Assembly: GCA_964522305.1 (NCBI GenBank)
Contig: CAZFVM010000001.1
Location: forward strand, 1 to 51,814
Direction of reading: 5' to 3'
Length of the DNA stretch: 51,814 nucleotides
DNA from: an uncultured Oscillospiraceae bacterium
GTDB lineage: Bacteria > Bacillota > Clostridia > Oscillospirales > CAG-382
Under the pieces are notes generated by a model. The model was not told the origin of the DNA. It did not search any database and saw only the letters and a program-made list of their open reading frames with translations. The position numbers were made by a program, and so were the translations under genes. Below are positions 28,281 to 45,269 of this stretch, piece after piece. Numbering within the stretch: position 1 is the first letter of the stretch; each line of letters starts with the position of its first letter.

Positions 28281-28697
28281 TTATTCTTCCTCGTCGTCCT
28301 CGTAGTCTTCTTCTTCCTTGGAGACTGTCAGAGTGTTGTCGCAATAGGGGCAGACCACTGTGTCGTTGTCCTCTACTTCGTCGTAATCCAGACAGATAAT
28401 CTCTCCACAAGCGGGGCATTCCAAATCTACGCAGTCGTCACAATCGTCATAGTCATAGTAATCTTCGTCGCCGTCAAAATCATAAACAAATCTTTCTAAT
28501 TCGCCCAAGTCCTCGTCTAACTCTTCTGCATAGTCGGCAAGTCCGGCGGCTTCGTCCTCTAAGTCGAGAACGGACAAGGATAAATCCTCGAGCAGGTCAG
28601 CTATAGCTGCAAAAAGTTTACCTTCCTTTGTAGACTTGTCATAATCCATGCCCTCTAATAATCCTTTGATGAAGGCAGCTTTCTCCGAAATATTCAT
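28281..28697 (-). CDS. Hyper-acidic zinc-ribbon protein (resembles the CD1247 N-terminal domain family)
   Basis: 138 aa. By my count it has 50 D/E against 7 K/R. Cys pattern CDDC...CPAC...CPYC. A stem ATCGGGG/CCCCGAT followed by a T-rich run lies downstream at 28222-28253. Confidence 0.6.
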   Translation of the reverse strand: MNISEKAAFIKGLLEGMDYDKSTKEGKLFAAIADLLEDLSLSVLDLEDEAAGLADYAEELDEDLGELERFVYDFDGDEDYYDYDDCDDCVDLECPACGEIICLDYDEVEDNDTVVCPYCDNTLTVSKEEEDYEDDEEE

Positions 28698-28806
28698 AGC
28701 GTTGCTCCTTGTGTAATGTAGTTAGGTTATTGAGGGAACCTACAAACCTTATATAAAAAATACGTGTAGTGCCATATCTAAGTCATCCGAATGCGGATGC
28801 ACTTTG

Positions 28807-29364
28807 TCATACCCGTTCTAAATATTCTCCCGTACGGGTATCTATCTTAACCACATCCCCCTCATTGATAAAGATGGGAACCTTTATAACAGCCCCTGTC
28901 TCTAAGGTGGCAGGTTTTGTCACATTGGTAGCGGTGTTGCCCCGGACTCCGGGCTCGCTCTCGGTGACTGCCAGCTCTACAAACATGGGAGGTTCTACCG
29001 AAAAAACATTGCCCTTGTGGGATACCAATCTCACCGTGAACCCTTCCTTGACGAACTTGAAGTTCTCGGGCAACAGGTCTTTGTTTATCGGAACTTGGTC
29101 ATAGGTCTCCATATCCATGAAGTAATACAAATCCCCGTCGTTGTAGCTGTATTCCATATCCTTGCGTTCTATCATGGCGGTGGGGAACTTGGCGCTGGGG
29201 TTGAAAGTGGTCTCGGTCACCGAACCTGTAATGACGTTCCTGATCTTTGCCCTTACAAATGCGGCTCCCTTGCCCGGCTTTACATGCTGAAACTCGATAA
29301 CCTGTACAACGTTTCCCTCCATCTCAAAGGTCAAACCGTTCCTAAAATCACCGGCAGAAATCAT
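28807..29364 (-). CDS. efp: Elongation factor P
   Basis: [46 protein letters not shown] at 29364 with AGGAGG upstream. The ORF-track N-terminal extension was rejected. Confidence 0.95.
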
Positions 29365-29473
29365 AACTCCTCCTAACTTATAAAGGAAAATGCCAGAGGT
29401 ATAAAATGCGAATGGAATAAAACACCAAAGAGGCATTTCGTTTTATAAAATAAAATTAAATACTATACAATAT

Positions 29474-29502
29474 ATTCTATATAAGACCCGGGTTTTTGTC
29501 AA
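29474..29502 (-). promoter_or_regulatory. Sigma-A-like promoter upstream of efp
   Basis: On the minus strand: TTGACA (29502-29497), 17-nt spacer, TAGAAT (29479-29474). Confidence 0.5.
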
Positions 29503-29545
29503 GTTTTATTTGTCGCATTAGTCTTTTTTATAAAATCTTGATTTT

Positions 29546-30625
29546 TTAAATCTCGATAAGTTGCTTTGGCGAACCGGTCAAGTTTTTTGACCCTTCCTTT
29601 GTCACCAGCACCATGTCTTCTATCCTGACACCGAACTGCCCGGGCAGATAAATCCCCGGCTCTACGGTCATTACCGCACCGGCGGGTATAGGATGGCTCC
29701 ATCCAGAGGCAAACCTCGGGGATTCGTGAATCTCCAGTCCCAATGAATGACCGGTGGAGTGCCCGAAGTAATCGCCATAGCCCTTGTGGACTATATGGTC
29801 TCGGGCGGCTGCGTCGACTACACTGCCCAAGACTCCCTCTCGAACCGTGTCAATGGCTTTGTTATGGGCGGTCAGTACGGTTTCGTAGACCTGTTTCATC
29901 TCCGGCGTGGCTTTTCCTATTACTATGGTTCGAGTCATATCCGAGCAATAGCCTTTGTACTTTGTGCCAAAATCCATGGTTACAAAGGTGTCGGTTCCAA
30001 GGGGAGAGTCCGAGGGCTCACCGTGGGGGAGGGAACTGTTTTTTCCCGCCACCGCAATAGTGTCAAAAGCCATTTTTTCTCCGCCGTGGCGCTTACAATA
30101 ATATTCTATCTCCGCTGCCAGTTGCAGCTCGGTCATATCTTTGTTGATAATCCCCAGGATATGTTTAAATGCTCCGTCGTTTATCTCTTGGGCGGTCTTG
30201 ATTCTCTTAATCTCTTCCGGGTCTTTGATTTGTCTGAGTTTTGAGGTTATATCCGCGACCCCTTCTACTGTTGCGGGTATCTTACCGGTCAGAGTCTCCG
30301 CCAGGTTGACGGTCAGGAGGTTCTTGTCAAAGGCGAGTTTTTGCAGAGAGTGTTGCTTTATATAGTCACTTAGAGCCTCGACCGCCCTTTTTGTGAGAAG
30401 GTAAGGGGTGACCCCGAGCTTCAAATCCCCGGCGGATTTCGCCCTCGCTGCCGCTTCATAATATCGACTGTCTATCATAAGGGCAGTCTCTGACTCTGTT
30501 ATTACAACAACCCCGTCGGTGGAAAAAAATCCGGTCAGATAATATTGATTTATCGGGTCTAAAAACATAGCCGAATCAAACCCGGAGTCAGACAGGGTTT
30601 TTATTATATTGGCAGAAGGTTCCAT
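29546..30625 (-). CDS. pepP: M24-family Xaa-Pro aminopeptidase
   Basis: 359 aa with a creatinase-like N-domain and pita-bread fold motifs (DFG..YKGYCSD, GHSTGHSLGLEIHE, EPG). The position upstream of efp is the classic one. Confidence 0.85.
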   Translation of the reverse strand: MEPSANIIKTLSDSGFDSAMFLDPINQYYLTGFFSTDGVVVITESETALMIDSRYYEAAARAKSAGDLKLGVTPYLLTKRAVEALSDYIKQHSLQKLAFDKNLLTVNLAETLTGKIPATVEGVADITSKLRQIKDPEEIKRIKTAQEINDGAFKHILGIINKDMTELQLAAEIEYYCKRHGGEKMAFDTIAVAGKNSSLPHGEPSDSPLGTDTFVTMDFGTKYKGYCSDMTRTIVIGKATPEMKQVYETVLTAHNKAIDTVREGVLGSVVDAAARDHIVHKGYGDYFGHSTGHSLGLEIHESPRFASGWSHPIPAGAVMTVEPGIYLPGQFGVRIEDMVLVTKEGSKNLTGSPKQLIEI

Positions 30626-30657
30626 GGGTGCTCCTTTATATTACTAACAAGTATACT

Positions 30658-31539
30658 TTATTGTCCGGCTTTTATCCCGGATATGAGGGACTCCAACTCT
30701 TGCTTTGAGTAGTTATAGACTTTATCGCAAAACTGGCAACCTAAGGAGGTCTCTTCCGGGGAATCCAACAACCCCTGCAACTCTGTCTTACCCAAAGATA
30801 TCAGTGCGTTATCCGTTTTATCCCTGCTACAGTTACAAACATATCCGCATTGTATGGAGTCAAATACATCGTAGTCTATCCCGGTCAGATATGCGTCCAA
30901 AACCTCTAACGGAGTTTTGTCGGTCAACAACGAGGTGATAGGGGGTAAATTGGCGAGGTTCTTCTCGAAGACATCTACTATCGCTTCATCGGCAAAGGGT
31001 AAAAGCTGAAACAGCATTCCCCCCGTGGCTTTGCAGGTGTGGTCCCGGTCTATCAAAACACCTAAAGTGCAAGCGGTGGGGATTTGCTCGCTTAAGGCAT
31101 AGTAATAAACTATATCCTCGGCAATCTCTCCGCTTACAATATCCGAGACCCCCACATAGGGCTCTTTACCTCCGGTATCCCGCAGGACATACAAGTTACC
31201 CTTACCCACACAACCCCCGACATCCAGCTTCCCGGATTGGTTTAGCGGCAGGTCACACAAAGGGTTTTGGATAAACCCTCGCACGTTTCCCATATAGTCG
31301 CTGCTCGCTACTATGGTGCCGCCGGGTCCGTCCCCTTTTATCCTCAAGGTTAAGAGGTCGCTTTGGTTTCCCATCAGCGAACCCATAAGGGAGGCAGCCG
31401 TCAAGGTTCTGCCCAAAGCCGCCGAGGCGGTGGGGGCAGGGGAGTGAATCTCTATTGCCCGATTTATTATATCTATGGAATTAATGACCAATACCCTGGC
31501 AGAGCCGTCCTTGGTCATTGCTCTGATAATTTCTGCCAT
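30658..31539 (-). CDS. hslO: Redox-regulated chaperone Hsp33
   Basis: 293 aa with the C-terminal zinc centre CNCS...CQFC. Confidence 0.9.
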   Translation of the reverse strand: MAEIIRAMTKDGSARVLVINSIDIINRAIEIHSPAPTASAALGRTLTAASLMGSLMGNQSDLLTLRIKGDGPGGTIVASSDYMGNVRGFIQNPLCDLPLNQSGKLDVGGCVGKGNLYVLRDTGGKEPYVGVSDIVSGEIAEDIVYYYALSEQIPTACTLGVLIDRDHTCKATGGMLFQLLPFADEAIVDVFEKNLANLPPITSLLTDKTPLEVLDAYLTGIDYDVFDSIQCGYVCNCSRDKTDNALISLGKTELQGLLDSPEETSLGCQFCDKVYNYSKQELESLISGIKAGQ

Positions 31540-31551
31540 ATATAATCCTTT

Positions 31552-33951
31552 TTATTTAACCACTATATTGAAAATTCGGTTTTTTACATATATTTTTTTG
31601 ATTATTGTTTTGCCCTCCAGCAAGGGAGAGATTTTGTCGCTTTTTGAAACTATATCAAAAGCACTATCCTCATCACAGTCTAAGGGTAAGAGCAACACAT
31701 CCCGGACCCTGCCGTTGATTTGGACAGCTACTTCCACCTCATCGGTCTTTATCTTTTCCTCGTCATAAGTAGGCCAGGGGGCTAAAGAACAAAGTCCGAC
31801 TCCACCCAAGTGCTCCCACATCTCTTCGCTTATATGGGGGGCAAAGGGGGACAGAATAACCGAGAAGGTCTTTAGGGTTTCCGGGTCGGTGCCGCCCTTT
31901 GCATATATTTCGTTGACCAGGCTCATCATAGAAGCAATGGCGGTGTTAAACTTCATCTCTTCTATGTCTTCGGTCACTTTTTTTATGGTTAGATGGAGGG
32001 CTCGCTCTATGTCTTGGTCTTTGTCCGGGACTATCATCTCTGCGAGATGGGCAAAACGGTCCAAAAACCGCTTGCAGCCCTTTACCCCGTTGGTGGACCA
32101 GGACGCAGCTTTTTCAAAATCCCCGATAAACATCTCATACAGGCGCATGGTATCCGCACCGAACTCTTCGACAACATCATCGGGATTGATTACATTGCCC
32201 CGGGATTTGCTCATTTTTTCCCCGTCTTCTCCGAGAATCATTCCGTGGGCAGTCCTCTTGAGATAGGGTTCGGGGCAGGACAAATAACCTTCGTCATACA
32301 AGAACTTTGACCAAAAACGGGAATAAAGCATATGTAGGGTGGCGTGTTCCATCCCGCCGTTGTACCAATCCACCGGCATCCAATAATCCAGTGCCTCCCG
32401 AGCCGCAAAAACTTCTGTGTTGGTCGGGTCGCAGTACCTAAGGAAGTACCAGGAAGACCCTGCCCATTGGGGCATGGTGTCGGTCTCTCTCTTACCCGGT
32501 CCTTTGCACTTCGGGCAGGTGGTATTGACCCAGTCGGTTATGGCAGACAAGGGGCTCTCTCCGCTGTCGGTGGGTTGATAGGACTCCACCTCCGGCAGCA
32601 GTACCGGCAACTCGGACTCCTCCACCGGTTGCCAACCGCAGTGGTCACACCACACAAGGGGAATAGGCTCGCCCCAATATCTTTGGCGGGCAAACACCCA
32701 ATCCCTCAGCTTGTAGTTTACCTTTTTTTGACCCAGATTATTTTCTATCAAATATCGGGTCATTTTTTTCTGGGCTTCCTGTACCTCAAGTCCGTTTATA
32801 AACCCGGAGTTTATAAGAACCCCCGTATCCACATCGGTATAAGCTTCCTTTGATATATCGCCGCCGCCTACCACCTCGACTATAGGCAGGTCGAAGGTCT
32901 TTGCAAACTCATAGTCCCGCTCGTCGTGGGCAGGTACTGCCATTATAGCCCCTGTGCCATAGGTGATAAGGACATAGTCCGAGACAAAAATAGGGATTTC
33001 TTTATTGTTTACCGGATTGATGGCATATACCCCTTCCAGCTTTACACCGGTTTTGTCTTTGACCAACTCGGTACGCTCGAAATCGCTTTTTTTGGCAGCT
33101 TCTTCCTTGTATGCTTGGATTTCGTCGTAGTTGGAAAGCTTATCCCTCCACTCGTCTATATAAGGGTGCTCGGGGGCGATAACCATGTAGGTTGCGCCAA
33201 AGAGAGTGTCGGCTCTGGTGGTAAAGACCTTAAGTTTTTGGTCTGTGGAGGTGGAAAAACTAACCTCGGCACCGTAAGACCTGCCTATCCAGTTGCGTTG
33301 GGCAAGCTTTACTCTGTCTATATAATCCAAGTCCTCCAAGTCATCCAGGAGCTTGTCGGCGTATTCTGTTATCTTGAGCATCCATTGGGTCTTTGCCCGA
33401 CGAACCACTTGGCTGTGGCATCGCTCGCACTCCCCGCTTATTACTTCTTCGTTGGCAAGCACCACCTTACAAGAGGTACACCAGTTGACCGTCATTTCTT
33501 TTTTGTAGGCGAGACCTTTGTTAAAGAGCTTTAAGAAAATCCACTGGGTCCACTTATAATAGCTCGGATCGGTGGTATTAACCTCCCGAGACCAGTCAAA
33601 GGAAAGCCCCAGAGCCTTTAGTTGGCTCTTAAACCGTGCCACGTTGTTTTTTGTTACCGTGGCGGGGTGAATTTTGTGCTCTATGGCATAGTTCTCGGTG
33701 GGTAGTCCGAAGGCGTCCCAACCCATGGGAAAAAGTACATTATAGCCCTGCATCCTGCGTTTTCTTGCCACTATGTCCAAGGCGGTATAAGGGCGGGGGT
33801 GCCCCACATGGAGTCCCATGCCCGAGGGGTAGGGGAACTCTATGAGGGCATAGTACTTTTCTTTGGTGTAGTCGTTGGAGGCGGCAAAGGCTTCACGCTG
33901 CTCCCATATCTTCTGCCATTTTGCTTCAATGGTCTTAAAATCGTGTTTCAT
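31552..33951 (-). CDS. leuS: Leucine--tRNA ligase
   Basis: 799 aa with [13 protein letters not shown] (HIGH region) and the KMSKS motif. Confidence 0.95.
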
Positions 33952-33997
33952 ATTGTAATAAATTCCTTTTGCTCTTTATGATTTACGGGTATTTTGG

Positions 33998-34987
33998 TTA
34001 CTCTTCTTCGTTTATTTTCTCTGCTCGAGGAGGTTGATTCCAGAGTTTTTCCAGCTTATAAAAATCCCTGCCCTCTCCGTTGAAAATATGCACAATGACC
34101 GAGCCGTAGTCCAATAATATCCAAGTGTTGCCGGTATAGCCTTCTATATGGTTTGGTTTGATTTGCAGTTTTTCGAAGGTTAGTTTTTCCACATCATCTG
34201 CCAGGGATTTTACATGGGTGACGGAGGTTCCGCTGCCGATTACAAAATAATCTGCCAGAACCGTTTGTTTCCCCACCTCAATCATGGTCGGGTCTATTCC
34301 TTTTTTATCCTCTAAGATTCCCAGAATAGCGGTTGCCAGTTCCAAGGCTTTTTGGGCCTGTTCCTTTTCTTGGGTCATGTTATCCTTCCTTTCGGTTGTT
34401 ATTTTGTCGTAATACTCTTTGGCTTTTATAGTCATGGGGTCTAAGGTCTTACCCTCTAAGTTTAGATAGTCTATAGTCTGCTCAAAGGAAAAGGCGATCG
34501 CCTTGTTTAGCGCATAGGTTTTGTCCGGGTGGTTTGCGTAAAGGTGTTCGTAATACTCACGGACCGCAACGCAGTAAGGGTCTGTCCTGTTGGGCTCAAT
34601 ATAATCCGCAAAATACAGGCACTTTTCCGGGTCGGTCATATTCGGTCTGCCGGTGGTGTGATAATAAATCGCCGATTGAATGTAGTCGGGCAGTCCATAT
34701 ACCTCCCGGGCGATTGCCGCCGCGGTCTTTGCGTGGTAGAGCTTCTGTAATCCTTGGCTCTCCGGGGGTATTGTAATGGAATAGGTCTCGCAAAGCTCCT
34801 TTTGTCGAGCTAAAGTGTATTCTTTGGTAAAGTCGTGGAGCAATGCCGCGGCAATCATCTCTTCTTTGTCTAACCCGGGGAAATGACGGTCGATTAAAAG
34901 GACCACCGCTTCTGCCACCCCCAAGGTGTGCAAAAACCGCTTTTTTGACAATTTTAGGTCTCTTTGTATCCGTTGGTTTAAGGTCAT
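33998..34987 (-). CDS. Single ORF fusing a YqeK-type HD phosphohydrolase to ribosome silencing factor RsfS
   Basis: Residues 1 to about 200 form an HD domain (LHTLGVAE...AALLHDFTKE...YYHTTG). Residues 204-329 are RsfS-like (ADYFVIGSGTSVTHVKSLADDV...WILLDYGSVIVHIF). There is no stop between the two parts. An internal ATG at 34378 is preceded by GGAAGGA. Confidence 0.8.
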   Translation of the reverse strand: MTLNQRIQRDLKLSKKRFLHTLGVAEAVVLLIDRHFPGLDKEEMIAAALLHDFTKEYTLARQKELCETYSITIPPESQGLQKLYHAKTAAAIAREVYGLPDYIQSAIYYHTTGRPNMTDPEKCLYFADYIEPNRTDPYCVAVREYYEHLYANHPDKTYALNKAIAFSFEQTIDYLNLEGKTLDPMTIKAKEYYDKITTERKDNMTQEKEQAQKALELATAILGILEDKKGIDPTMIEVGKQTVLADYFVIGSGTSVTHVKSLADDVEKLTFEKLQIKPNHIEGYTGNTWILLDYGSVIVHIFNGEGRDFYKLEKLWNQPPRAEKINEEE

Positions 34988-35571
34988 CAGTCTTTGTATA
35001 GCCCTCTTTCTGATATATATTTCGCCACCCCGATCGGCAGATAGTCCTCAGTCGGCGTAACCCTCAGCTGGGTGGATGATATTTTGACAGGGATATATGT
35101 AAGCAGGGTTATATCCGCACAATATTGATTCTTAACCTTGTCCATGACCTCGGTTATGTCGGCACCGGAGCGCAGGGCTATATAAAGGGAAGTGTTGTTT
35201 AATAAATACTTGGGTCTTTTCCACTTATCGAAGATAAGCAGGTTGTCGTCCCCGATTAACAGGCAAAGGGTGGCGTCGGGATAGGTCTTTTTGAAGTGGG
35301 AGACGGTTTTGTAGGTATAACTTACCCCTTTTTGCCGTATCTCGTAATCGTCTACAGTGACCTTTTCCATATCGGCAAAGGCTATCTTTAGCATAGCCAT
35401 CCTGTCGGCAGCCAACGCCCCGACTTTCGCTTGGTTTGCTTTTAGGGGCGGGGAGGAGTTGGGTATAACAAAGAGGCGGTCCAAATCAGCTTCGGCAATA
35501 AAAGCTCGTGCCGCCTCAACATGTCCGATATGTACCGGGTTGAAGGTTCCTCCGTATATACCGATTCTCAT
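34987..35571 (-). CDS. nadD: Nicotinate-nucleotide adenylyltransferase
   Basis: MRIGIYGGTFNPVHIGH, the nucleotidyltransferase (H/T)IGH motif. The stop overlaps the yqeK start (TGATG). Confidence 0.9.
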   Translation of the reverse strand: MRIGIYGGTFNPVHIGHVEAARAFIAEADLDRLFVIPNSSPPLKANQAKVGALAADRMAMLKIAFADMEKVTVDDYEIRQKGVSYTYKTVSHFKKTYPDATLCLLIGDDNLLIFDKWKRPKYLLNNTSLYIALRSGADITEVMDKVKNQYCADITLLTYIPVKISSTQLRVTPTEDYLPIGVAKYISERGLYKD

Positions 35572-35583
35572 AATCTCTTCCTT

Positions 35584-35877
35584 TTATTTTGGCAGGACTA
35601 TCGAGGGGTTTTTTACCGAAGGACGGTATATTACCACCTTTCTGCCTATCACTTGGACCGGCTCACAATCTAACCGGTCGCACAATTCCGACATTGTCTC
35701 CTTTGGGGACAGCGGGCTGGTTTCCAACAAATGTATTTTTATAAGTTCTCTTGCTTCCAGGGCGTCGGATAAGGTCTTTATCAGATTGTCGCTTATTCCA
35801 CCTTTGCCTATCTGGTGAAAGGTATCTAAATTGTTTGCCAAAGAGCGCAGGTATGCGCGTTGTTTTGTGCTAATCAT
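35584..35877 (-). CDS. yhbY: YhbY/CRM-domain RNA-binding ribosome assembly protein
   Basis: 97 aa, LRSLANNLDTFHQIGKGGISDNL...ELIKI, the typical CRS1/YhbY fold signature. Confidence 0.85.
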   Translation of the reverse strand: MISTKQRAYLRSLANNLDTFHQIGKGGISDNLIKTLSDALEARELIKIHLLETSPLSPKETMSELCDRLDCEPVQVIGRKVVIYRPSVKNPSIVLPK

Positions 35878-35890
35878 TTTGTCCTCTTTA

Positions 35891-37567
35891 TTATATGTAT
35901 TGTGTGTTTTTGGATAACATTTCTCTTGCCGTTTTTATGACAGTCTCGGTGAGACTTACTCCACCGATAATCCGCGCCAGCTCTGTCACCCGGTCCTCTC
36001 CCTTTAGGTCTGTTACCTTGGTGGAGGTCCTGCCCTCGGACTCGGATTTTGTGATGAGAAGATGGTTTTGCCCTCGGGAAGCGATCTGGGCTGAGTGGGT
36101 GACACAGATAACTTGACAGTTGTTGATAACCGCAGTCTCGGACAGCTTCATACCTATCTTGTCGCTGGTCTTGCCGGAGATACCGCTGTCTATCTCGTCA
36201 AAGATCATGACCGAATAATCCTTTTCTCCGACAATGCTCTTTAACGCCAACATCAATCGCGAAAGCTCTCCCCCCGAGGCTACTTTTGAGATAGGCTTGG
36301 GTTCTTCCCCTATATTGGCACTGATCAGGAAGTTTGTTGAGGTGTTGCCGGTTGGGGTATATTCGCCATCAATAAAGTCTATGACAAACTTCACCCCCGG
36401 CATATCCAGAAAGGTTAAGGTCTCTTCTACTTTGTTCTCCAAGACCTTGGCGGATGTGTATCTGCTTTGGTTGAGCTTATCGGAGGCGCCTTTTAAGGTT
36501 TGCTCCTGCTTTATTAAGTCTTCTTTTAGTTTTGCCAATATCTCTGCAGAGTATTCTATGGTGTCAAGCTCGGACTTTAAGTCCTCGAGCTCTGTCAGTA
36601 TATCCGGGATATCCTTCTTATACTTACGCTTTAGGGTGTTGATATACTCCAGCCGCTCCTCGATGACATCCAGTCGCTTTGCCGGGTCCCCTTCCTCGGG
36701 GTTGGTATAAGGCATAATCCTGTCGGAAATATCCTCCAGCTCATATTTTATCTCGGTTATCCGCTCGGTCATCTCTGCGGTTTCGGGAATAATGTCGGTC
36801 AGGCTTTGAAGAGCGGAGATGGTGGCTTCCAATCGGTCGGCAATACTGTTGCCGGTCCTGTAAAGGTTGTCAAAGGCGAGGTTGGCGCTTTGGATTATCT
36901 TTTCTGTGTTTATCAGCAAAACCCGTTCCTGCTTTAGTTCTTCCTCTTCTTTTACACTCAGGGCGGCTTTTTCTATTTCGTTTATCTTATGCTTTATTAT
37001 CTCGAGCCGAAAGGTTTTGTCCTCTTCGGCTTGTTTGAGTTTTTGTTGTTTTTTTATTAGGGAGGTGTATTCGTTATACTCCCGTTGGTATTCCTGCAGT
37101 TGGAGGGAGTTTGCAGCGAAGGCATCCAGCAAGGCCAACTGTTTTTTCTCTTCTGCCAACACCTGGGTGTCCTGCTGTCCGTGGAGGGCGATTAGTATGT
37201 CTGCTACTTCTTTAAGCCTAAAGAGGGGGACTTGCCTGCCGTTTATTCGAGCAACAGATCTGCCGTCGGAGCTCAATCGTCGGGAAAGATACACAAACCC
37301 GTCTTCATCGGGGTAGATATCCAGCTCGGCGAGCTGGGTTGAGGCGGTGGGGGATAAGTCAGAAAAAACCCCTTCTACCAAAGCCTGGTCCTCCCCGGTA
37401 CGGATGATGCTTTTGTCCCCTCGGGCACCGCAGAGCAAAGAGATGGAATCGACAAGTATGCTTTTTCCCGCACCGGTCTCCCCGGTAAGAACGGTAAAGC
37501 CCCTGCCGATTTCCAGATTGATATTCTTAATCAAGGCGATGTTTTCGATGTGTACGGATACTAACAT
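35891..37567 (-). CDS. recN: DNA repair protein RecN
   Basis: 558 aa with the SMC-like Walker A GETGAGKS, a long coiled coil, and C-terminal signature ASGGELSR and FDEIDSGISG. Confidence 0.95.
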   Translation of the reverse strand: MLVSVHIENIALIKNINLEIGRGFTVLTGETGAGKSILVDSISLLCGARGDKSIIRTGEDQALVEGVFSDLSPTASTQLAELDIYPDEDGFVYLSRRLSSDGRSVARINGRQVPLFRLKEVADILIALHGQQDTQVLAEEKKQLALLDAFAANSLQLQEYQREYNEYTSLIKKQQKLKQAEEDKTFRLEIIKHKINEIEKAALSVKEEEELKQERVLLINTEKIIQSANLAFDNLYRTGNSIADRLEATISALQSLTDIIPETAEMTERITEIKYELEDISDRIMPYTNPEEGDPAKRLDVIEERLEYINTLKRKYKKDIPDILTELEDLKSELDTIEYSAEILAKLKEDLIKQEQTLKGASDKLNQSRYTSAKVLENKVEETLTFLDMPGVKFVIDFIDGEYTPTGNTSTNFLISANIGEEPKPISKVASGGELSRLMLALKSIVGEKDYSVMIFDEIDSGISGKTSDKIGMKLSETAVINNCQVICVTHSAQIASRGQNHLLITKSESEGRTSTKVTDLKGEDRVTELARIIGGVSLTETVIKTAREMLSKNTQYI

Positions 37568-37569
37568 AA

Positions 37570-38031
37570 TCAGTGACTTTGCTTAATCAGTTTTTTGAAC
37601 TCGTTGTATATATTCAAAGCCGCGCTCGGGTCTCGGGTTATCACCAGCAAAGTGTCGTCTCCGGCAAGGGAGCCTATAACCCCGGGTAAAGTCATTGAGT
37701 CTACGGCTGCCCCGGCGGCGCTCCCCATACCGGTATAGGTCTTTATCACCACCAGGTTCCCGGCATAATCCGCTTCCTTCATGGCTTGACTCAATATGAC
37801 CGAAAAACGCCCGCTTATCATATCTTTTTCTGCCTCGGCGTTCTTGGCATATTTATAGCGGTTTTTCTCCAGGGAGACCTTCACCAACCCCAGTTGGCGT
37901 ATATCCCTGGAAATGGTGGCTTGGGTCGCGGAAAACCCCATCAACTCCAGCTCACGGGAGAGCTCTTGCTGGGTATTTATTTCATGTTTTTCGATGATAT
38001 CAAGGATTGCCTGTCTTCGACTCTTGGTCAT
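37570..38031 (-). CDS. argR: Arginine repressor
   Basis: MTKSRRQAILDIIEKHEINTQQEL...TISRDI winged helix plus a C-terminal oligomerisation domain (GTLAGDDT-like GSLAGDDTLLV). ATG at 38031 has GAGG 8 nt upstream. The GTG at 38040 is an alternative start. Confidence 0.9.
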   Translation of the reverse strand: MTKSRRQAILDIIEKHEINTQQELSRELELMGFSATQATISRDIRQLGLVKVSLEKNRYKYAKNAEAEKDMISGRFSVILSQAMKEADYAGNLVVIKTYTGMGSAAGAAVDSMTLPGVIGSLAGDDTLLVITRDPSAALNIYNEFKKLIKQSH

Positions 38032-38078
38032 TAAAAACACCTCTGCTGCTTTGATTTGGGCTTTTTTTGCCTCACCCT

Positions 38079-38933
38079 TTAACCTAATTTGCGTTTTAAC
38101 GCCGCATAGAAGGCGTCCTGCTTTAACTTTATAAAGGTAATTGCTTTATCGCTTTTTTCTATAACAACTTTGTCGTGGTTTGCCAAGGGAAAAGAGTGCT
38201 TGCCGTCCACCGTGAGTATCAGGTCTCCCCCTTTTTCGGAATAAGGCTCTACCTCAATCAAAGACCCCGGAGAAAAGACCATGGCCTTGGAGTCCGCCAG
38301 AGAATGGGAACAAATGGGGCACACACAAAAGCCCTCTAACTTAGGGTCGATAATGGGACCCCCTGCCGCCATAGAATAGGCGGTGGAACCGGTGGGAGTG
38401 GAAATAATAAGCCCGTCGGCTTTGTATTCGTTAACCGGGGTATGGTCACAGGCGAGCTTGAGGGTTACCATACTCGCCACCGCACCCCTGGAAACAATAG
38501 CTTCGTTAAGGGCGAAAAAATCTATCAGCTTTACTCCTTCCCGATAGACCGAGGTTTTGAGCATCATCCTGTCTATACTCCAAAAACTCCCTTTTAACCC
38601 GTCTAACAGGTGGAGTTCACTTATCTCAAGTTCGCTCATATAACCCAAGGTTCCCAGGTTTATACCCAACAAAGGGGTATCAAAAGAACAAGCCTTATGG
38701 GCTGCCGACAACATGGTGCCGTCTCCGCCCAAAACAATGGCGATGTCGCTTTTTTCAAAGGCTTCTTTTTCCGGCAGATATTTGTCTGCATCAAATACAC
38801 CTTTGTACTCGTCGGAGATAACAACGCTCATATCCAGCTCACGAAGCTTTTCGGTCACCATAGCCACCGCTTCTTGACATCTTTGTTTGTTGTAGTTTGG
38901 GTAAATAAGGACTTTCTTTATGATAAGGGACAT
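38079..38933 (-). CDS. nadK: NAD kinase
   Basis: 284 aa with the GGDGTML motif and STPTGSTAYS. Confidence 0.9.
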   Translation of the reverse strand: MSLIIKKVLIYPNYNKQRCQEAVAMVTEKLRELDMSVVISDEYKGVFDADKYLPEKEAFEKSDIAIVLGGDGTMLSAAHKACSFDTPLLGINLGTLGYMSELEISELHLLDGLKGSFWSIDRMMLKTSVYREGVKLIDFFALNEAIVSRGAVASMVTLKLACDHTPVNEYKADGLIISTPTGSTAYSMAAGGPIIDPKLEGFCVCPICSHSLADSKAMVFSPGSLIEVEPYSEKGGDLILTVDGKHSFPLANHDKVVIEKSDKAITFIKLKQDAFYAALKRKLG

Positions 38934-39048
38934 GGCTTGTTCTCCTTTCTCTTAATATATTTTTGGGTGATTAATATATAATTTTGCTTTTTGTAAGACA
39001 ATCGCATTTATTGGTCTTTGACATTAATAGATATAAAAAATTTTGCCT

Positions 39049-40926
39049 TTAACTATCTTGGTTCTCCGAGTCTTTGTTGAGCAGGCTTAATATCTCCCTG
39101 GTTATTTGGTTAGGAGAAAACCCGCATTGTGCAAACAGCTCGTCGTTGGAGCCGTGCAGGACAAAGTTATCCTCTATTGCCCGCACTGCGTACTTACGCC
39201 CGGGGTCTGAGGGACAAAGGGTCGAGGCTAAGGTTTCTCCTATACCTCCCCGCTTCATGCCTTCTTCTAAGATATACACCAAAGATGTTTGGCCCAAAAA
39301 TAGACTTATCTTTTCGAAATCCAGGGGTTTTATGCAAATAAGCTTTATAACTCGACAGTTAATGCCTTTTTGATAAAGCATCCCGGCGGCTAACAAAGCG
39401 TTTTTTGTAATCCTGCCATAACTGATAATACTGACCGTGGGGTTGGGTCCGAATTCGCAGACCCCGGTGTCCCCCGCCATGTTAAATATGGAGCGGTCGT
39501 ATTCTTCGGGGGAGCCCTTCGGATATCTTATTGCCACGGGCTTGTTTGAGGTCATCGCCCTTTCAAAGGCGAAATCGAAGTCCTCAAAGGACTCGGGGGA
39601 GTATATAACCGTACCGGGTATGGTGTTTAGCAGACTGACATCAAATATACCGTGATGGGTCACTCCGTCTTCTCCCACAAACCCCGCTCGGTCCAACGCC
39701 AATATCACCGGCAGCTTCTGGATGGCAACATCATGCAAGAACTGGTCATAACCCCGCTGGAAAAAGGTGGAATATACGGCAAACACCGCTTTGTTACCCT
39801 GGGTGGCAAGCCCGGCACAAAAGGTGGTGGCATGCCCTTCCGCTATCCCCACATCAAAGAATCTATCGGGGTGCTCGGCGGCAAAGGCTCCGAGTCCGGT
39901 GCCATCGGTCATGGCGGCGGTTATCCCACATATGCTTTTGTCAACCTTTGCATATTCTGTCATCAGGTTGCCAAAGTGGGAGGAGAAGGTGGGACGAGCT
40001 CCCTGAGAGGGTTTGCCGGTTTCGATATCAAAACTGCCTATCGAGTGGAACTTCTCTGCCTTTTCCTCCGCCGGCTTATAGCCCTTGCCCTTGGTGGTAC
40101 AGATATGGACCACGCTGCATTTGTCCGAGAGTTTTGCTTCGTTTAAGAGGATTTCCAGTTGTTTTTGGTTGTTGCCGTCGATGGGACCGAAATAGTTGAG
40201 CCCCATTACCTCAAAGAAATTTTCTTTGACCAAAATCCTCTTGACTCTATTTTTTGCCTTTTTAGAAATTTTTATAAGACCCTTTCCGATAAGGGGAATA
40301 GACCCAAACATTTTGCTTATTGAGTGCTTGAATCTAAAGTAACGGGCACTGTTGCGAAAACGACGAAAATATCGGCTAATACCCCCCACATTCTTTGATA
40401 TAGACATGTCGTTGTCGTTGAGAACTATAATAAGGCGGTCGTAGTCCCCGCAATTGTTTAGCGCTTCGTATACCATCCCTCCGGTAAAAGCGCCGTCACC
40501 TATCACCGCTATGGTGTAGTTGGGGTTGTCCTTTAGTTTGTTGGCGGCAGCTATCCCCAAAGCTGCGGACAAGGCGGTAGAACCATGCCCTGCGCCAAAG
40601 GGGTCATGGGGGCTCTCTGCCCGACAGGTAAACCCGGAAATCCCGTTGTATCGGCGTAAAGTATTAAGAAGATGCTTTCTGCCGGTAATCATCTTGTGAA
40701 TGTAACTCTGGTGTCCCACATCCCAGATGATTTTGTCTTCGGGAGAATCAAAGACCCTGTGTAATGCCAAAGTAAGCTCGGCGACACATAGGTTGGATGC
40801 CAGATGACCGCCGGACTTAGAGACCGTGTTTAGCACTTCGTCTCTCAACTCCTCGGCGAGTATTTCCAGCTGCTCGTAGGATAATTCTTTAATGTCTTCG
40901 GGGGAGTTTGTGTGTTCGATAATCAA
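39049..40926 (-). CDS. dxs: 1-deoxy-D-xylulose-5-phosphate synthase
   Basis: 625 aa with GGHLASNL, the GDG thiamine-diphosphate motif (IGDGAFTGG) and a transketolase-like C-terminus. The TTG start overlaps the stop of the upstream membrane gene (TTGA). Confidence 0.95.
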   Translation of the reverse strand: MIIEHTNSPEDIKELSYEQLEILAEELRDEVLNTVSKSGGHLASNLCVAELTLALHRVFDSPEDKIIWDVGHQSYIHKMITGRKHLLNTLRRYNGISGFTCRAESPHDPFGAGHGSTALSAALGIAAANKLKDNPNYTIAVIGDGAFTGGMVYEALNNCGDYDRLIIVLNDNDMSISKNVGGISRYFRRFRNSARYFRFKHSISKMFGSIPLIGKGLIKISKKAKNRVKRILVKENFFEVMGLNYFGPIDGNNQKQLEILLNEAKLSDKCSVVHICTTKGKGYKPAEEKAEKFHSIGSFDIETGKPSQGARPTFSSHFGNLMTEYAKVDKSICGITAAMTDGTGLGAFAAEHPDRFFDVGIAEGHATTFCAGLATQGNKAVFAVYSTFFQRGYDQFLHDVAIQKLPVILALDRAGFVGEDGVTHHGIFDVSLLNTIPGTVIYSPESFEDFDFAFERAMTSNKPVAIRYPKGSPEEYDRSIFNMAGDTGVCEFGPNPTVSIISYGRITKNALLAAGMLYQKGINCRVIKLICIKPLDFEKISLFLGQTSLVYILEEGMKRGGIGETLASTLCPSDPGRKYAVRAIEDNFVLHGSNDELFAQCGFSPNQITREILSLLNKDSENQDS

Positions 40927-41582
40927 TTAATCTTGTCCTCGTTTTTTGTAGGTTTGCCGGGCTTATCAGAAAAACCGCTCAACACCTTAGCGGCAAACAA
41001 AACTATTCCTTCGCTATGCTTTGTGGCTATAATCTTACCCACTGCTTTAAATCCTACGGTAGCCGCAGCTATCAAAGAGGTAAGCAAAAGAGTAAGCCAA
41101 AGGTTACTGTCAAAGACATTCACCGATATGGCGGCGCCGGTCACACCGCTCATTACCCCGGCGATATCCCCGATAAGGTCGTTACAAAAAGAGGTAACCT
41201 TGTCGGAGTTCGAAATCAGCCAGACCGCTTTCTTGCCGGACTTTAGCTTGCGGGCAGCCATGGAATTAAAGGGCTTTACTTCTGCCACGGCAACCGCCAG
41301 TCCCAGAATGTCAAAAAACACTCCTATGAATATAAAAAACAGCAGCACCGGTATTGCCACCAAAACATTTATCGAGGCAACAACCTCGGTAGAGCCGAGG
41401 GACAGCACCGCCGTTATCAAAAAGGACAGCACAAAGGCAGTTAATACCCAACGCTTCTGGGTCCGCCGTTTTTGTTGTTCTTTCTTTGTTAAACGGGTCT
41501 TATTTTGATTGTGAGTGCGGCTTGGTTTGCCGCCGGATGACTTTGCCTGTTTGATACTTCGATCAGGCTCTTTACTCTCCAT
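40923..41582 (-). CDS. oapA: Small 4-TM membrane protein with a highly basic N-terminal tail; candidate OLE-associated protein A
   Basis: 219 aa. About 15 K/R in the first 45 residues (KQAKSSGGKPSRTHNQNKTRLTKKEQQKRRTQKR), followed by about four TM helices. It lies immediately downstream of the ORF-free RNA-like gap and upstream of dxs. The name rests on synteny, not on a homology search. Confidence 0.6.
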   Translation of the reverse strand: MESKEPDRSIKQAKSSGGKPSRTHNQNKTRLTKKEQQKRRTQKRWVLTAFVLSFLITAVLSLGSTEVVASINVLVAIPVLLFFIFIGVFFDILGLAVAVAEVKPFNSMAARKLKSGKKAVWLISNSDKVTSFCNDLIGDIAGVMSGVTGAAISVNVFDSNLWLTLLLTSLIAAATVGFKAVGKIIATKHSEGIVLFAAKVLSGFSDKPGKPTKNEDKIN

Positions 41583-41676
41583 ACAGATCCTTTCAAGAGA
41601 GGTGTAGTTTGTGTTTGAAATGCGCTATATATATCCTAAGACTTAGTGTATAACTCGGTCTTTTATAAAAAACTTT

Positions 41677-42300
41677 AAAGATGGCGGCACAATATGTAAA
41701 CTTTGCGGCATACGGTCAAGTAGGTTTTCCCCGGCAGCTGCTTCCTTGTCGCCAATGGAGCGGTTTCCCTTTAAAACTGCCGACGGTATGTTGCCATATC
41801 CGTGACTTGATTGCCTTAAAGTCCGCACTGCAATCCAAATTGTGCCCGATGCAAAACAATAGTGTCTTGCATGTAATTCAGCCTAGGAGTTTTCCTCAAT
41901 AACCCGTCACCGTTGCCTAATCCTCTTTTGCAGCGATGATTTCAAGGAGCAGTATTCCCGACTTCGGTAGCTAATCTCCGCCGGTTTAAACCCCTATCCG
42001 CCATAACCACTCAAGGCAGGCTACATCTATCCGCAGCATCAAAAAACAATACCGCCTGATAGGTCTAATCCCAATCCAAGAAAACAAGGTCATCCTCGTC
42101 CCTTGGGGTCGGGCCTCAAAGGAGAGTGGGACAAGATCCGCATGCCATTGCGGGTTGCCCACAATCCCATTCTCTCAGCACTCACCCTAAACTGGGCGTA
42201 TAAAGCAAGCACCAAAAGCTTCATCGATTTGCCTTTACGCGTATTTTTAGGCACGCTTTCAGCAACAACGGGCTAACTAGGATACTGCGCCATCTTTGGC
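41677..42300 (-). ncRNA. ole: Large structured non-coding RNA, probably OLE (ornate, large, extremophilic) RNA
   Basis: The region has no credible ORF. A 10-bp closing helix pairs 42297-42288 with 41686-41677. A GNRA (GCAA) hairpin lies at 41802-41784. A nested hairpin at 42176-42122 has a G-U pair valid only on the minus strand. The approximately 620-nt size and the ispA-RNA-membrane protein-dxs context match published OLE loci. The ends are approximate. Confidence 0.6.
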
Positions 42301-42302
42301 AT

Positions 42303-42331
42303 ATAATATCATATTTTAATTATAAATACAA
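42303..42331 (-). promoter_or_regulatory. Candidate sigma-A-like promoter just upstream of the RNA domain
   Basis: On the minus strand: TTGTAT (42331-42326), 17-nt spacer, TATTAT (42308-42303). This would place a TSS a few nt before the 5' strand of the closing helix. Confidence 0.35.
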
Positions 42332-42343
42332 TTATTTTTACCA

Positions 42344-42369
42344 CCGAAACAAAACCCCTTTTGTCTCGG
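42344..42369 (-). promoter_or_regulatory. Stem-loop directly after the ispA stop codon
   Basis: Minus-strand CCGAGACAAAA-GGGG-UUUUGUUUCGG, 11 bp including one G-U. There is no following U-tract, so it is not a canonical terminator. It could be a 3' stability or processing hairpin. Confidence 0.3.
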
Positions 42370-43266
42370 TTAACTTTCCCTATCCAGCAAATAATCGCAG
42401 AGTTGCAAAAGTCGACGGGCAGGGCCCGAATTCGGGTAGGATTTTATCACGCTTTTGGCTTTGTTTGTGTGTTCTTTTGCCAGCTCTTCGCTGCGGGTTT
42501 GTCCCAGCAAAGCCGGGTAGGTGTTCTTTCCTTTTTGCGCGTCTGCCCCCGGGGTTTTGCCCATCTTGTCTTTGTCTCCCCGGATATCCAGAAGATCATC
42601 TATAATCTGAAACGCCAACCCCAGGTGTCTGCCAAACTCGGCAGAACTCTCCATGTCAGAGGGGCTCCCCCCGCCAGCGATACATCCCAGCACACAGGAA
42701 CACGAGATAAGGGCTGCCGTCTTTTTGGCAACTAAGTCTTCCAAGACCTCCGCAGAAATACTCGCATGCTCGCTTTGCAGGTCTATCTGTTGCCCCCCCA
42801 TCATCCCGTCCTTCCCACCATAGGCGGCAAGGGCGATTACCGCTTGCAAGTTTTGCTCCGGAGAGCAAAGGGGGTTCTCGGCTGCGACTCTAAAAGCCTC
42901 GGTAAGCAGTGCATCCCCCGCCAATATAGCCGTGGCTTCACCGAAGACTATGTGGTTTGAGGGTTTGTTGCGCCTGAGGTCGTCGTTGTCCATGGCGGGT
43001 AGGTCATCGTGGACCAAGGACATGACATGCAGCATCTCCACCGATGCACCGTACATAACTCCTTTGTCTTCTGACCCGCTAAAGAGTCGGCAAAACTCCA
43101 GCACCAGATAAGGGCGTATCCTCTTTCCCGGCAGGGTGACAGAATAGCGCATGGCGTCAATAAGGATAGCGTGATTGCTTCGGGTGGAAGCCAACAGCTT
43201 TGTTATGGTTTTGTCGGTAATCTCCTTTGCCTCGTTTAAGGCAAGGCTTAAGTCATAAAAGGGCAT
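42370..43266 (-). CDS. ispA: Farnesyl/geranylgeranyl diphosphate synthase (polyprenyl synthetase)
   Basis: 298 aa with the first DDxxD-type motif LVHDDLPAMDNDDLRR and the second motif FQIIDDLLD. Confidence 0.9.
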   Translation of the reverse strand: MPFYDLSLALNEAKEITDKTITKLLASTRSNHAILIDAMRYSVTLPGKRIRPYLVLEFCRLFSGSEDKGVMYGASVEMLHVMSLVHDDLPAMDNDDLRRNKPSNHIVFGEATAILAGDALLTEAFRVAAENPLCSPEQNLQAVIALAAYGGKDGMMGGQQIDLQSEHASISAEVLEDLVAKKTAALISCSCVLGCIAGGGSPSDMESSAEFGRHLGLAFQIIDDLLDIRGDKDKMGKTPGADAQKGKNTYPALLGQTRSEELAKEHTNKAKSVIKSYPNSGPARRLLQLCDYLLDRES

Positions 43267-43298
43267 GTTTACCCCTTTCGATAATTATAGTGATGGGG

Positions 43299-43523
43299 TT
43301 ATTCGGCGGTAAAGTCCTGCTCTATAGCCATGCCTTCTGCCTCGGTTATGAGCTTGACCTTTTTTTCTGCCGTCGATATTTTCTCGTTGCAGAATTTAAC
43401 CAATTTGCTTCCTTCTTCAAACAAAGAAAGGGATTCGTCCAAAGGGGTGTTCGCCGCCTCCAGAGCCTTGACTATCTCTTCTAACCTTGCCAAAGCCTTT
43501 TCAAAAGTCAATTCTTTTTCCAT
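43299..43523 (-). CDS. xseB: Exodeoxyribonuclease VII small subunit
   Basis: 74 aa, FEKALARLEEIVKALE...PLDESLSLFEEG. Confidence 0.9.
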   Translation of the reverse strand: MEKELTFEKALARLEEIVKALEAANTPLDESLSLFEEGSKLVKFCNEKISTAEKKVKLITEAEGMAIEQDFTAE

Positions 43524-43535
43524 TTGTTTATCCTT

Positions 43536-44822
43536 TTACTTTAGTGTTTTATTGTCGTTTTTTGTTGTTTGTGTAGCCGTTGCCGTAACCTTTCCGTCGG
43601 CGAGCAGTATATCCAGGGTATCCCGGGCACTTACATCCTCCACCGAAGCGATGGCTTTGCCCCGGGAGTCATAGACCACCGCATACCCTCTGGACAAAAT
43701 CGCCAAGGGGTTTAGGCTTTGGAGCTTTTCTCTTTGAAGACGCAGGTTGCTGCGACTTTGCTCCAAGAATCTGGCAGGGGCGAGGGCAAGAAGCTTTTGG
43801 TGACGGTCTATGGTGCTCTTTATCAGCTCGAAGTTTAGCACTCCATACAGCCGCTCCTCTAACCGTCCCAGAGTCATCTTTCGCTCGTCAAAGGTGGTCA
43901 AGGGAGATTGCAACACCCTTCTTTGTGCCAGCAGTTGCAAACGATTGTCCAGCTCGGTTATCTGTCGCATCAGGTTATTTGTTATTATCGCCTTTACATT
44001 ATCGAACTTTTGCATAAGCTCCAGAGAATCCGGTACCGCCAGCTCTGCGGCAACAGACGGGGTGGGGGCACGCAGATCCGCCACAAAGTCCGAGATGGTG
44101 GTGTCGGTCTCATGGCCGACGGCGGAAATAACCGGAGTATGGCAATCAAATATTGCCCGGGCGAGCTCTTCGTTGTTAAATGCCCACAGGTCCTCTATAG
44201 ACCCTCCGCCTCTGCCGATTATAATAACATCGTACATCCGACTTTGGTCAAGATATTTTAGCCCCTTTATAATCTGGGCAGGGGCACCTTCTCCTTGGAC
44301 TAAGGAGGGGTAAATGGTTATCTTTGCCGCAGGAAATCGTCGGCTTATTACATGTATCATATCCCGAACCGCGGCTCCCGTGGGGGCGGTGACTATCCCT
44401 ACGCTAAAGGGGATTTTGGGAATCTTTTTCTTATGCTCCGGAGAGAAAAGACCTTCTTTGCGGAGCTTTTCTTTGAGTTGTTCGAAGGCGATATACAGCG
44501 CGCCGATCCCGTCTTGCTCCATACTGTCTATATACAGCTGACAGGTCCCGTCTTTGATATAGGTGGAAATCCGCCCGCGACACAACACTTTCATACCGTC
44601 TTTGGGTAAAAAACTCAATTTTGTTCTTCCTCCGAACATAACCGCCTTGAGGGTGGACTGCTCGTCTTTTAGAGTCAGATATACATGACCGGAGGCAGTA
44701 TGCATGACAAAGTTAGATATCTCCCCCCGCAGATGCACGTTTTTTAAGGTTGGAAGGTTATCTAAGTAGTCTTTTATAAGTTTGTTTACCTGGGAAACGG
44801 TTAGGGTGTTTTCTCCGCTCAT
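43536..44822 (-). CDS. xseA: Exodeoxyribonuclease VII large subunit
   Basis: 428 aa with an N-terminal OB fold (VHLRGEISNF...SGHVYLTLKD) and a catalytic core (GRGGGS). Confidence 0.9.
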   Translation of the reverse strand: MSGENTLTVSQVNKLIKDYLDNLPTLKNVHLRGEISNFVMHTASGHVYLTLKDEQSTLKAVMFGGRTKLSFLPKDGMKVLCRGRISTYIKDGTCQLYIDSMEQDGIGALYIAFEQLKEKLRKEGLFSPEHKKKIPKIPFSVGIVTAPTGAAVRDMIHVISRRFPAAKITIYPSLVQGEGAPAQIIKGLKYLDQSRMYDVIIIGRGGGSIEDLWAFNNEELARAIFDCHTPVISAVGHETDTTISDFVADLRAPTPSVAAELAVPDSLELMQKFDNVKAIITNNLMRQITELDNRLQLLAQRRVLQSPLTTFDERKMTLGRLEERLYGVLNFELIKSTIDRHQKLLALAPARFLEQSRSNLRLQREKLQSLNPLAILSRGYAVVYDSRGKAIASVEDVSARDTLDILLADGKVTATATQTTKNDNKTLK

Positions 44823-45211
44823 TTGTTAACTATCCTGCCTATTACTCCGTTGATGAAAGGGACTGCCTTTTCGTCATCGTACTCCTTCGCCAGTTCCAAA
44901 GCTTCGTTTATTATCACCGGGATATCGGTTTCGGCGATATAAACAATCTCGTAGACACACATTCTGAGTATGCCCAAGGTGATTTTGTTGATTCTGTTTA
45001 GTTTCCAGTTGTCCGCTGCTTTTTCTATCATTTCGTCCAACTCGAGCTTGTGTTGACTCACTCCAAAGAAAAGCTCCTTTGTAAAGTCGTCGTAGCTCTC
45101 CTCGCGATAGAGCGTTGCGTGTTCCAACAGCTCCTCGGGAGCAAGGTCGTTATAAAACTCCTGTTCGTATATCAGTTCAAGGGCTTTTGTTCGGGATTTT
45201 CGTCTGCTCAT
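44819..45211 (-). CDS. nusB: Transcription antitermination factor NusB
   Basis: MSRRKSRTKALELIYEQEF... I chose ATG at 45211 over 45238. The stop overlaps the xseA start. Confidence 0.9.
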   Translation of the reverse strand: MSRRKSRTKALELIYEQEFYNDLAPEELLEHATLYREESYDDFTKELFFGVSQHKLELDEMIEKAADNWKLNRINKITLGILRMCVYEIVYIAETDIPVIINEALELAKEYDDEKAVPFINGVIGRIVNK

Positions 45212-45269
45212 TATAGTAGTTTCCCTGTTCTTTATCATTAAAATATGGGTGTCAAAAATATATCATTAT

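Follow-up and report, generated by a model that had tools for sequence, protein, structure and literature searches.

An OLE RNA gene and its oapA partner in an uncultured Clostridia-like genome

OLE RNA and the gap downstream from ispA

Among the bacterial non-coding RNAs that still have no known biochemical function, OLE RNA (first described in 2006 and catalogued in Rfam) is one of the largest and best conserved. Recent cryo-electron microscopy (cryo-EM) work proposes that OLE is a dimer with P3 stems that cross the membrane. ROOL, GOLLD, and the raiA motif are other large and highly structured non-coding RNAs for which no biochemical function is known. To our knowledge, they lack any association, such as that of OLE, with a membrane protein gene or with the gene neighborhood described below. 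ROOL and GOLLD form homo-oligomers, as OLE does (PMC12286853). There are 2,822 OLE matches in the Bacillota of GTDB (PMC11332333) and 8,585 non-redundant OLE sequences have been collected (PMC12286853). In addition to the full-length RNAs (those of Halalkalibacterium halodurans, Clostridium acetobutylicum, and Clostridium botulinum, for example), there are two reduced variants: in variant 1, P7-P9 are short and P13 often does not end in an OapB site, and variant 2 is without P7 and P8 altogether (PMC11332333). Here, we describe the OLE locus in 51,814 nt of contig CAZFVM010000001.1, from an uncultured Oscillospiraceae bacterium. This whole stretch is referred to as the window, positions are numbered from its first nucleotide, and the RNA and its parts are on the minus strand.

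The gap downstream from ispA almost certainly holds an ole gene, specifying an RNA of approximately 621 nt on the minus strand with the architecture of OLE. An ispA-like open reading frame (ORF; 42370-43266, minus strand) and the next minus-strand ORF (40923-41582) leave 787 nt between them (41583-42369). The initial annotation, made from the sequence alone, had proposed an OLE-class RNA in this gap and a search with Infernal and the Rfam model as a check. Using Rfam 15 with its gathering thresholds, we scanned the entire window and found that RF01071 (OLE) matched 42309-41665 (minus strand) with a score of 400.4 bits (gathering score of 50; E-value of 3e-114). The match covered positions 1-616 of the 616 in the model and was untruncated, in agreement with the proposal. 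No second Rfam family was found at these thresholds anywhere in the window, including any riboswitch or leader family, and there was no match to ROOL, GOLLD, or the raiA motif. When the Rfam structure line was projected onto the sequence, there were 153 pairs, 134 of them standard.

The element is already known; it is a typical copy of OLE in an uncultured Clostridia-like genome. We observed membership in the family, conservation of the structure, the long-range helices, a promoter box, the partner gene, and synteny. As in the full-length RNAs, the length is about 620 nt, all of the Rfam helices are represented, and there are P1, P2-like, and P3-like helices, a proximal promoter, an A-rich L4, the k-turn (kink-turn) strand, GNRA-capped P13 and P14.1, and a palindromic L9.3. 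oapA is immediately downstream, and the surrounding genes are those for isoprenoid synthesis, DNA repair, and NAD metabolism. The RNA differs from the common form in having AGCU rather than GGCC in L9.3 (a published variant), a variable hairpin (41872-41849) that has grown to 10 bp, and TATTAT as its –10 box. P9 in the ten more distant loci is longer by about 20 nt. Unlike the hosts in which OLE has been studied, this host is uncultured, Clostridia-like, and seen only in metagenomes. The reduced variants belong to the same family and have the same conserved core nucleotides, but the RNA in the window retains P7 (17 pairs), P8 (13 pairs), and an intact P13 tetraloop and bulge. Because P7, P8, and the OapB site are present, the ole-oapA module is, judged by its sequence, of the full-length type and is neither variant 1 nor variant 2.

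Conservation and structure of the RNA

OLE is found next to relatives of the downstream protein in other genomes. The 219-amino acid (aa) protein encoded downstream from the gap was used as the query against one genome per GTDB species, which yielded 15 loci, all from metagenome-assembled genomes. Relatives were labeled uncultured Oscillospiraceae (67% identity) and Firmicutes HGW-21 (66% identity), and the others, at 35-45% identity, were from various Bacillota, including Candidatus Darwinibacter. An Rfam OLE match was directly upstream of the gene for the protein in 14 of the 15 loci; the remaining locus has just 29 upstream bases. The order xseB-ispA-OLE-oapA-dxs-nadK was kept wherever there was enough flanking sequence. 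Additionally, the sequence of the gap was identical in three independent sequencing runs (SRR8925768, SRR11702770, and SRR30309621; loci L016, L017, and L018), over all 787 nt in one run, over 621 nt in another, and over 585 nt in the third. Based on this identity, we conclude that the 787-nt sequence is not an assembly artefact and that the organism recurs across samples. The identical 219-aa protein is also present in several public assemblies.

The family structure is supported by covariation among the related loci. We aligned the RNA in the window with 12 full-length relatives (13 sequences; MAFFT, sequence only) and counted pairs in the Rfam structure, to which we had added the 11 columns of the terminal helix. 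As controls, we slid the 3' partners by 1-3 columns and made 500 shuffles. Standard pairs were present in 81.9% of the cells, compared to 43-46% in the slid controls, and 70 pairs changed on both sides, compared to 23-33 in the slid controls. For four of the five measures (percent paired, double-change pairs, double-change cells, and covariation score), the real alignment exceeded every one of the 500 shuffles. Low pairing was confined to the variable tips of P9 and the P14 region, where the sequence-only alignment is unreliable.

The RNA is on the minus strand, as the initial annotation had proposed. This is the strand of the Rfam match, and it folds better than the plus strand (minimum free energy of –228.8 kcal/mol, z = –4.7, versus –182.1 kcal/mol, z = –3.5). 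The argument originally given for the orientation, a U-G wobble that would be a mismatch on the other strand, does not hold up since it rests on a helix that is not supported (see below).

The ends of the RNA are joined by the terminal helix P1. In the window, P1 is 9 bp, formed by AAAGAUGGC (42297-42289) and GCCAUCUUU (41685-41677). In the 13 sequences, 93.7% of the cells in the P1 columns were paired, with compensatory changes at 7 of the 11 columns. The initial annotation had described a 10-bp long-range helix here. That helix is real and co-varies, but the tenth pair (G42288-C41686) is contested, as the Rfam structure pairs C41686 with G41846 instead. Published descriptions place a P1 stem at the ends of OLE RNA, with 5' ends determined by rapid amplification of cDNA ends near the start of P1 (PMC3413148, PMC12265935).

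Two more long-range helices lie inside P1 and, like P1, they co-vary even though they are unpaired in the Rfam structure line. The P2-like helix is formed by 42277-42287 (CAG...CCUAG) and 41886-41879 (CUAGG-CUG). It has eight of eight pairs in all 13 sequences, and two of its columns change from C-G to U-A, with a U-G intermediate in one relative (L010). To go by the wording of the published text, this helix is probably P2. The P3-like stem (42263-42275 with 41912-41900) is an uninterrupted 13 bp, including five G-U pairs, and encloses P4-P9. A one-column gap in the MAFFT alignment shifts the register of this stem, so we judged it by predicting the duplex in each sequence separately (RNAduplex) and found a counterpart of approximately 10-13 bp, with a different sequence in each, in all 13 RNAs. 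P3/P3.1 is described as 'typically 12 bp' and has been proposed to span the membrane (PMC12265935). From that description, the 13-bp stem is probably P3/P3.1.

Transcription of ole is predicted to start at the first bases of P1. There is an extended –10 box, TG-A-TATTAT, at 42303-42311 (minus strand), with a predicted start site at approximately 42297-42295. Across the 13 aligned loci, TNTGNTATAAT shows little or no variation, and a conserved TGnTATAAT box directly precedes the RNA in every one. A spacing of 17 nt separates the –10 box from a weak –35-like hexamer (TTGTAT; 42326-42331, minus strand), read from the sequence; the –35 at this spacing is TTGATA in L001 and L002. A generic sigma-70 scan missed the extended –10 box, and the sites that it reported inside OLE were only at chance level. 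The proximal OLE promoter of H. halodurans is active experimentally, with 5' ends near the start of P1 (PMC3413148). Based on the same placement at the start of P1, we believe that the extended –10 box in the window corresponds to that promoter.

The predicted mature RNA extends from the 5' strand to the 3' strand of P1 (42297-41677; 621 nt). The 94 nt between the end of P1 and the start of oapA are unstructured (z = +0.84), and neither a terminator scan nor folding of these 94 nt revealed a terminator in the interval. Since the interval is without structure or a terminator, oapA is probably co-transcribed with OLE.

There is a U-run after the 3' strand of P1. UUUUUU is present at 41672-41667 (minus strand), and a U-rich stretch is also found in most of the relatives and in the tail of the Rfam consensus. 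A long-range P1 helix followed by a U-run is a terminator-like arrangement. We considered the combined proposal that the window, L001, and L002 form a distinct sub-lineage of OLE and that P1 and the U-tract are, across the family, a terminator-like element. The traits of the proposed sub-lineage are the AGCU kissing loop, the 13-bp P3-like stem, the short P9, and the 45-residue basic tail of OapA, with the hairpin grown to 10 bp as a further trait in the window only. We regard this combination as unlikely. If it were true, then P1 and the U-tract would define where OLE ends and would also control how much transcription continues into oapA-dxs.

The 5' domain contains elements that could support dimerization and binding of OapC. 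The P4 hairpin (42238-42257) has an A-rich loop, CCUAAAAAU, with a core, CCUAAAAA, that is invariant in all 13 sequences; the final base of the loop deviates in L015 alone. L4 is the dimer bridge B1 in the cryo-EM structures (PMC12286853). The J4a/5 strand, AUCGAUGAAG (42219-42228), is also invariant in the 13 sequences. In described OLE RNAs, this strand forms a k-turn that is bound by OapC (PMC9723947, PMC12286853), and AUCGAUGAAG would likewise be able to form the OapC k-turn. The P9 arm (42017-41921) has the palindrome AGCU (41972-41969) in its tip loop, corresponding to the symmetric kissing loop L9.3. The sequence of L9.3 is UAGCUA in three loci (the window, L001, and L002), and the remaining ten have GGCC. 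Kretsch et al. presented covariation among the palindromes GGCC, GAUC, and AGCU as evidence for a symmetric kissing loop (PMC12286853). Both dimerization elements, the A-rich L4 and the self-complementary L9.3, are thus present, and the RNA is predicted to form a dimer.

The hairpins between J4a/5 and P9 follow the family structure. P5/P5.1 (42172-42218; 20 pairs, loop GCCCA) was 98.5% paired, with seven compensatory pairs. In P6/P6.1 (42121-42167; inner stem CCGCA/UGCGG, loop AUGGCA), the two helices were 89.7% and 100% paired, the latter being the inner hairpin. P7 (42070-42113; 17 pairs) and P8 (42027-42062; 13 pairs) are drawn from the Rfam structure and the alignment. The initial annotation had instead placed a nested hairpin at 42176-42122 (GAGAG/CUCUC and UGGGA/UCCCA, enclosing UUGUGGG/CCCGCAA). 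We rejected this hairpin because it competes with the better supported helices P5 and P6. GAGAG (42176-42172) pairs upstream with CUUUU to form the base of P5. The proposed inner stem, UUGUGGG/CCCGCAA, had no compensatory changes, and several of its pairs were found only in the three closest sequences.

A repeated motif in this region is due to chance. The initial annotation had pointed out an 8-nt motif, GCGGAUAG, that does occur twice as described; the first copy is in the 3' strand of P8. There were three copies in the window compared to 1.05 expected, and 10 of 100 shuffles reached three. Given this frequency and the lack of conservation beyond the closest relatives, we rejected GCGGAUAG as a functional repeat.

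Two small hairpins separate the P9 arm from the 3' domain. One, GAGGAAAACUC (41887-41897), is conserved and was 100% paired, with one compensatory change. The other is the 10-bp hairpin AUGCAAGACA/UGUUUUGCAU (41849-41872), a lineage-specific expansion of a variable hairpin. It falls where the Rfam alignment skips 32 nt of the sequence versus 13 in the model, and it accounts for the skipped stretch. When the equivalent segment was folded in each of the 13 sequences, only the window and L012 had 10 bp; the remaining eleven had 0-5 bp.

The 3' domain (41686-41846) contains P13, P14, and P14.1, and its enclosing helices were 95.8-100% paired, with compensatory changes. P13 (41803-41783) has a GCAA tetraloop and one bulged base and corresponds to the OapB site; the requirements of OapB at P13 have been described (PMC7936274). 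P14 is 8 bp (41782-41775 with 41739-41732), and P14.1 (41761-41740) has a GCGA tetraloop. Two helices noticed in the initial annotation are part of this Rfam structure: its GNRA-capped hairpin is P13, and its CGGCAG/CUGCCG pairing belongs to P14. All of the motifs that it quoted were found in the sequence where it had placed them. Throughout the RNA, all of the functional sites described in the literature and all of the highly conserved single-stranded motifs were intact.

OapA and alternative explanations

The gene downstream from the RNA is oapA. It encodes a 219-aa membrane protein (40923-41582, minus strand) and starts 94 nt after the end of P1. The identification, which agrees with the small membrane protein partner expected in the initial annotation, is based on position, a motif, and the predicted fold. 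The DxxxD motif specific to OapA is present as D135-L-I-G-D139, and D135, G138, and D139 were invariant in 62 homologues. This motif sets OapA apart from CNNM domains, to which the fold of OapA is otherwise similar (PMC11332333). According to Block et al. 2011, as cited in PMC12265935, OapA interacts directly with OLE RNA by binding it, and localization of the RNA to the membrane depends on this protein.

The predicted structure of the protein resembles the CNNM transmembrane domain. An AlphaFold2 model (predicted local distance difference test score of 81; predicted template modeling score of 0.67) had long helices at residues 28-70, 73-99, 126-156, and 161-188; a hydropathy scan was clear for the first two helices only. 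The top five Foldseek matches in the PDB were all CNNM, CorB, or CorC transmembrane domains (7m1t, 7m1u, 7cfg), with a probability of 1.00 and target-normalized TM-scores of up to 0.63, although the E-values were weak (0.018-0.29). These were the sole convincing PDB matches, a likeness to the CNNM proteins CorB, CorC, and MpfA. Unlike those proteins, OapA has no CBS or CorC_HlyC cytosolic domain and has a 45-residue basic tail. The tail (residues 1-45) is disordered, contains 15 Lys and Arg residues, and varies in length among homologues. It could be an additional RNA-binding segment.

Searches based on the protein sequence were less informative. The 219-aa ORF passed no curated cut-off in Pfam or NCBIfam; Pfam CNNM scored 17.3 bits against a threshold of 28.4 and was seen only at a relaxed E-value. 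A sequence search of the PDB gave nothing meaningful. Homologues in public databases are nameless or annotated as 'hypothetical protein', and occasionally as 'CNNM domain-containing'.

Nothing in the sequence speaks against OLE, although some caveats should be noted. Nineteen of the 153 model pairs are non-standard in the window, and most of these fall in the tips of P7 and P9, which are variable. At 400 bits, the score is the lowest among the compared loci and is below that of more distant relatives (455-487 bits). Neither oapB nor oapC was seen among the annotated genes of the window, in which ORFs of less than 90 aa were not scanned systematically. Lastly, we tentatively named the long-range helices P1, P2, and P3/P3.1 from what the published text says of them.

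The low score and the 19 non-standard pairs are what might be expected of a decaying, non-functional remnant of ole. We consider a remnant very improbable. The conserved single-stranded motifs and the protein-binding sites are all intact, as is oapA, with its invariant motif. Furthermore, a low score is common to L001 and L002 (66-67% OapA identity), which indicates divergence of a lineage under constraint, and compensatory changes have kept the helices within the sub-lineage. It is about as improbable that the gap is simply a long, structured 5' leader of the oapA-dxs-nadK mRNA, with a cis-regulatory function like that of a riboswitch or attenuator. The absence of a terminator or stable structure before oapA does make a single transcript probable. 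But the RNA matches, over its full length, a family that has been shown to be a stable, abundant, trans-acting component of a ribonucleoprotein (PMC3413148, PMC12265935), no riboswitch or leader family was matched in Rfam, and the RNA is a self-contained unit, closed by its terminal helix P1.

The least probable of the alternatives is that the gap encodes one or more small proteins. The initial annotation had stated that no ORF in the 787 nt is longer than 73 codons, which is borne out by the ORF coordinates. The longest ORF from start to stop is 73 aa (41681-41902, plus strand), and there are several of 46-73 aa, including some of 54-61 aa on the minus strand, any of which might be a candidate. 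From one of the 13 homologous regions to another, the longest open frames change in strand, reading frame, and position, and what is conserved is paired columns with compensatory changes rather than codons. We therefore rejected the coding hypothesis, as the open frames are not conserved among homologues. Based on the family match, the intact motifs and partner gene, the compensatory changes, and the lack of a conserved frame, we assign very little weight to each of the three alternatives and conclude that the gap holds an ole gene.

Gene neighborhood and significance

The neighborhood of the RNA is the one expected for OLE. The gene order in the window is nusB-xseA-xseB-ispA-OLE-oapA-dxs-nadK-argR-recN, and Pfam and NCBIfam confirm the names NusB, XseA, XseB, polyprenyl synthase (IspA), Dxs, NAD kinase, ArgR, and RecN. 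This is the neighborhood stated in the initial annotation. Also as stated there, the gap stands out in a compact run of co-directional genes (27377-45238): none of the other junctions exceeds 115 nt, the widest being that from 38933 to 39049. Farther downstream, Pfam and NCBIfam identified YhbY, NadD, a YqeK-RsfS fusion, LeuS, Hsp33, PepQ, and EF-P, and the window also encodes the sporulation protein YtfJ. The host is a member of the Bacillota with isoprenoid, DNA-repair, and NAD genes near ole, and its lifestyle is presumably anaerobic or extremophilic.

There is a hairpin at the end of ispA. It starts with the last base of the ispA stop codon (42343-42370, minus strand) and has 12 bp, CCGAGACAAAA-GGGG-UUUUGUUUCGG, plus one more closing A-U pair (–15.3 kcal/mol, z = –5.6). 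It is not followed by a U-tract and has no counterpart in L001 or L002. This hairpin may be the 3' end, or a stabilizer, of the upstream operon transcript.

Several other genes in the window have unusual features. An 879-aa protein (23866-26505, plus strand) carries GDSL lipase/esterase and MucBP domains and has a type I dockerin at its C-terminus. The dockerin suggests that the host might be a cellulosome-forming anaerobe. The YqeK-RsfS fusion is a single ORF of 329 aa (33998-34987, minus strand) that joins an N-terminal YqeK-type HD phosphohydrolase to the C-terminal ribosome silencing factor RsfS, two separate families in NCBIfam. Between the amidohydrolase gene and efp is a 138-aa ORF (28281-28697, minus strand) with no family match and weak C-terminal matches to zinc ribbons. 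Lastly, two ORFs for ATPases of energy-coupling factor (ECF) transporters (4306-5271 and 5180-6046; 4306-6046 in all, minus strand) overlap by 92 nt as listed, indicating that the downstream gene probably starts at an internal start codon.

We propose a model for how the module might function. Transcription of ole would begin from the extended –10 promoter, which ends about 6 nt before the first helix, and read-through from nusB-xseAB-ispA may add to it. Three nested long-range helices (P1, P2, and P3-like) tie the ends of the RNA together; they enclose the 5' domain (P4-P9), and the 3' domain (P10-P15) comes after them. Two copies of OLE would then dimerize through the A-rich L4, contacts among L5, L6, and L7, and the AGCU loop at the tip of P9. 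OapA, encoded directly downstream and probably co-transcribed, would hold the dimer at the membrane, with OapB docking on the GNRA-capped, bulged P13 and OapC on the k-turn formed from AUCGAUGAAG. The resulting ribonucleoprotein might help cells cope with short-chain alcohols, cold, excess Mg2+, and poor carbon sources. In this model, stable expression, dimerization, protein binding, membrane localization, and the role in stress are extended to this host, by homology, from work in H. halodurans and Clostridium.

This copy does not represent a new kind of element, and its practical value is in annotation. Protein-centered pipelines leave a 787-nt hole at this locus, and public sources leave the partner gene nameless or call it a 'hypothetical protein'. 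For the family, the RNA in the window adds one more divergent sequence, with its AGCU loop and 13-bp P3-like stem, that fits both the published dimer model and the proposal of a transmembrane stem.

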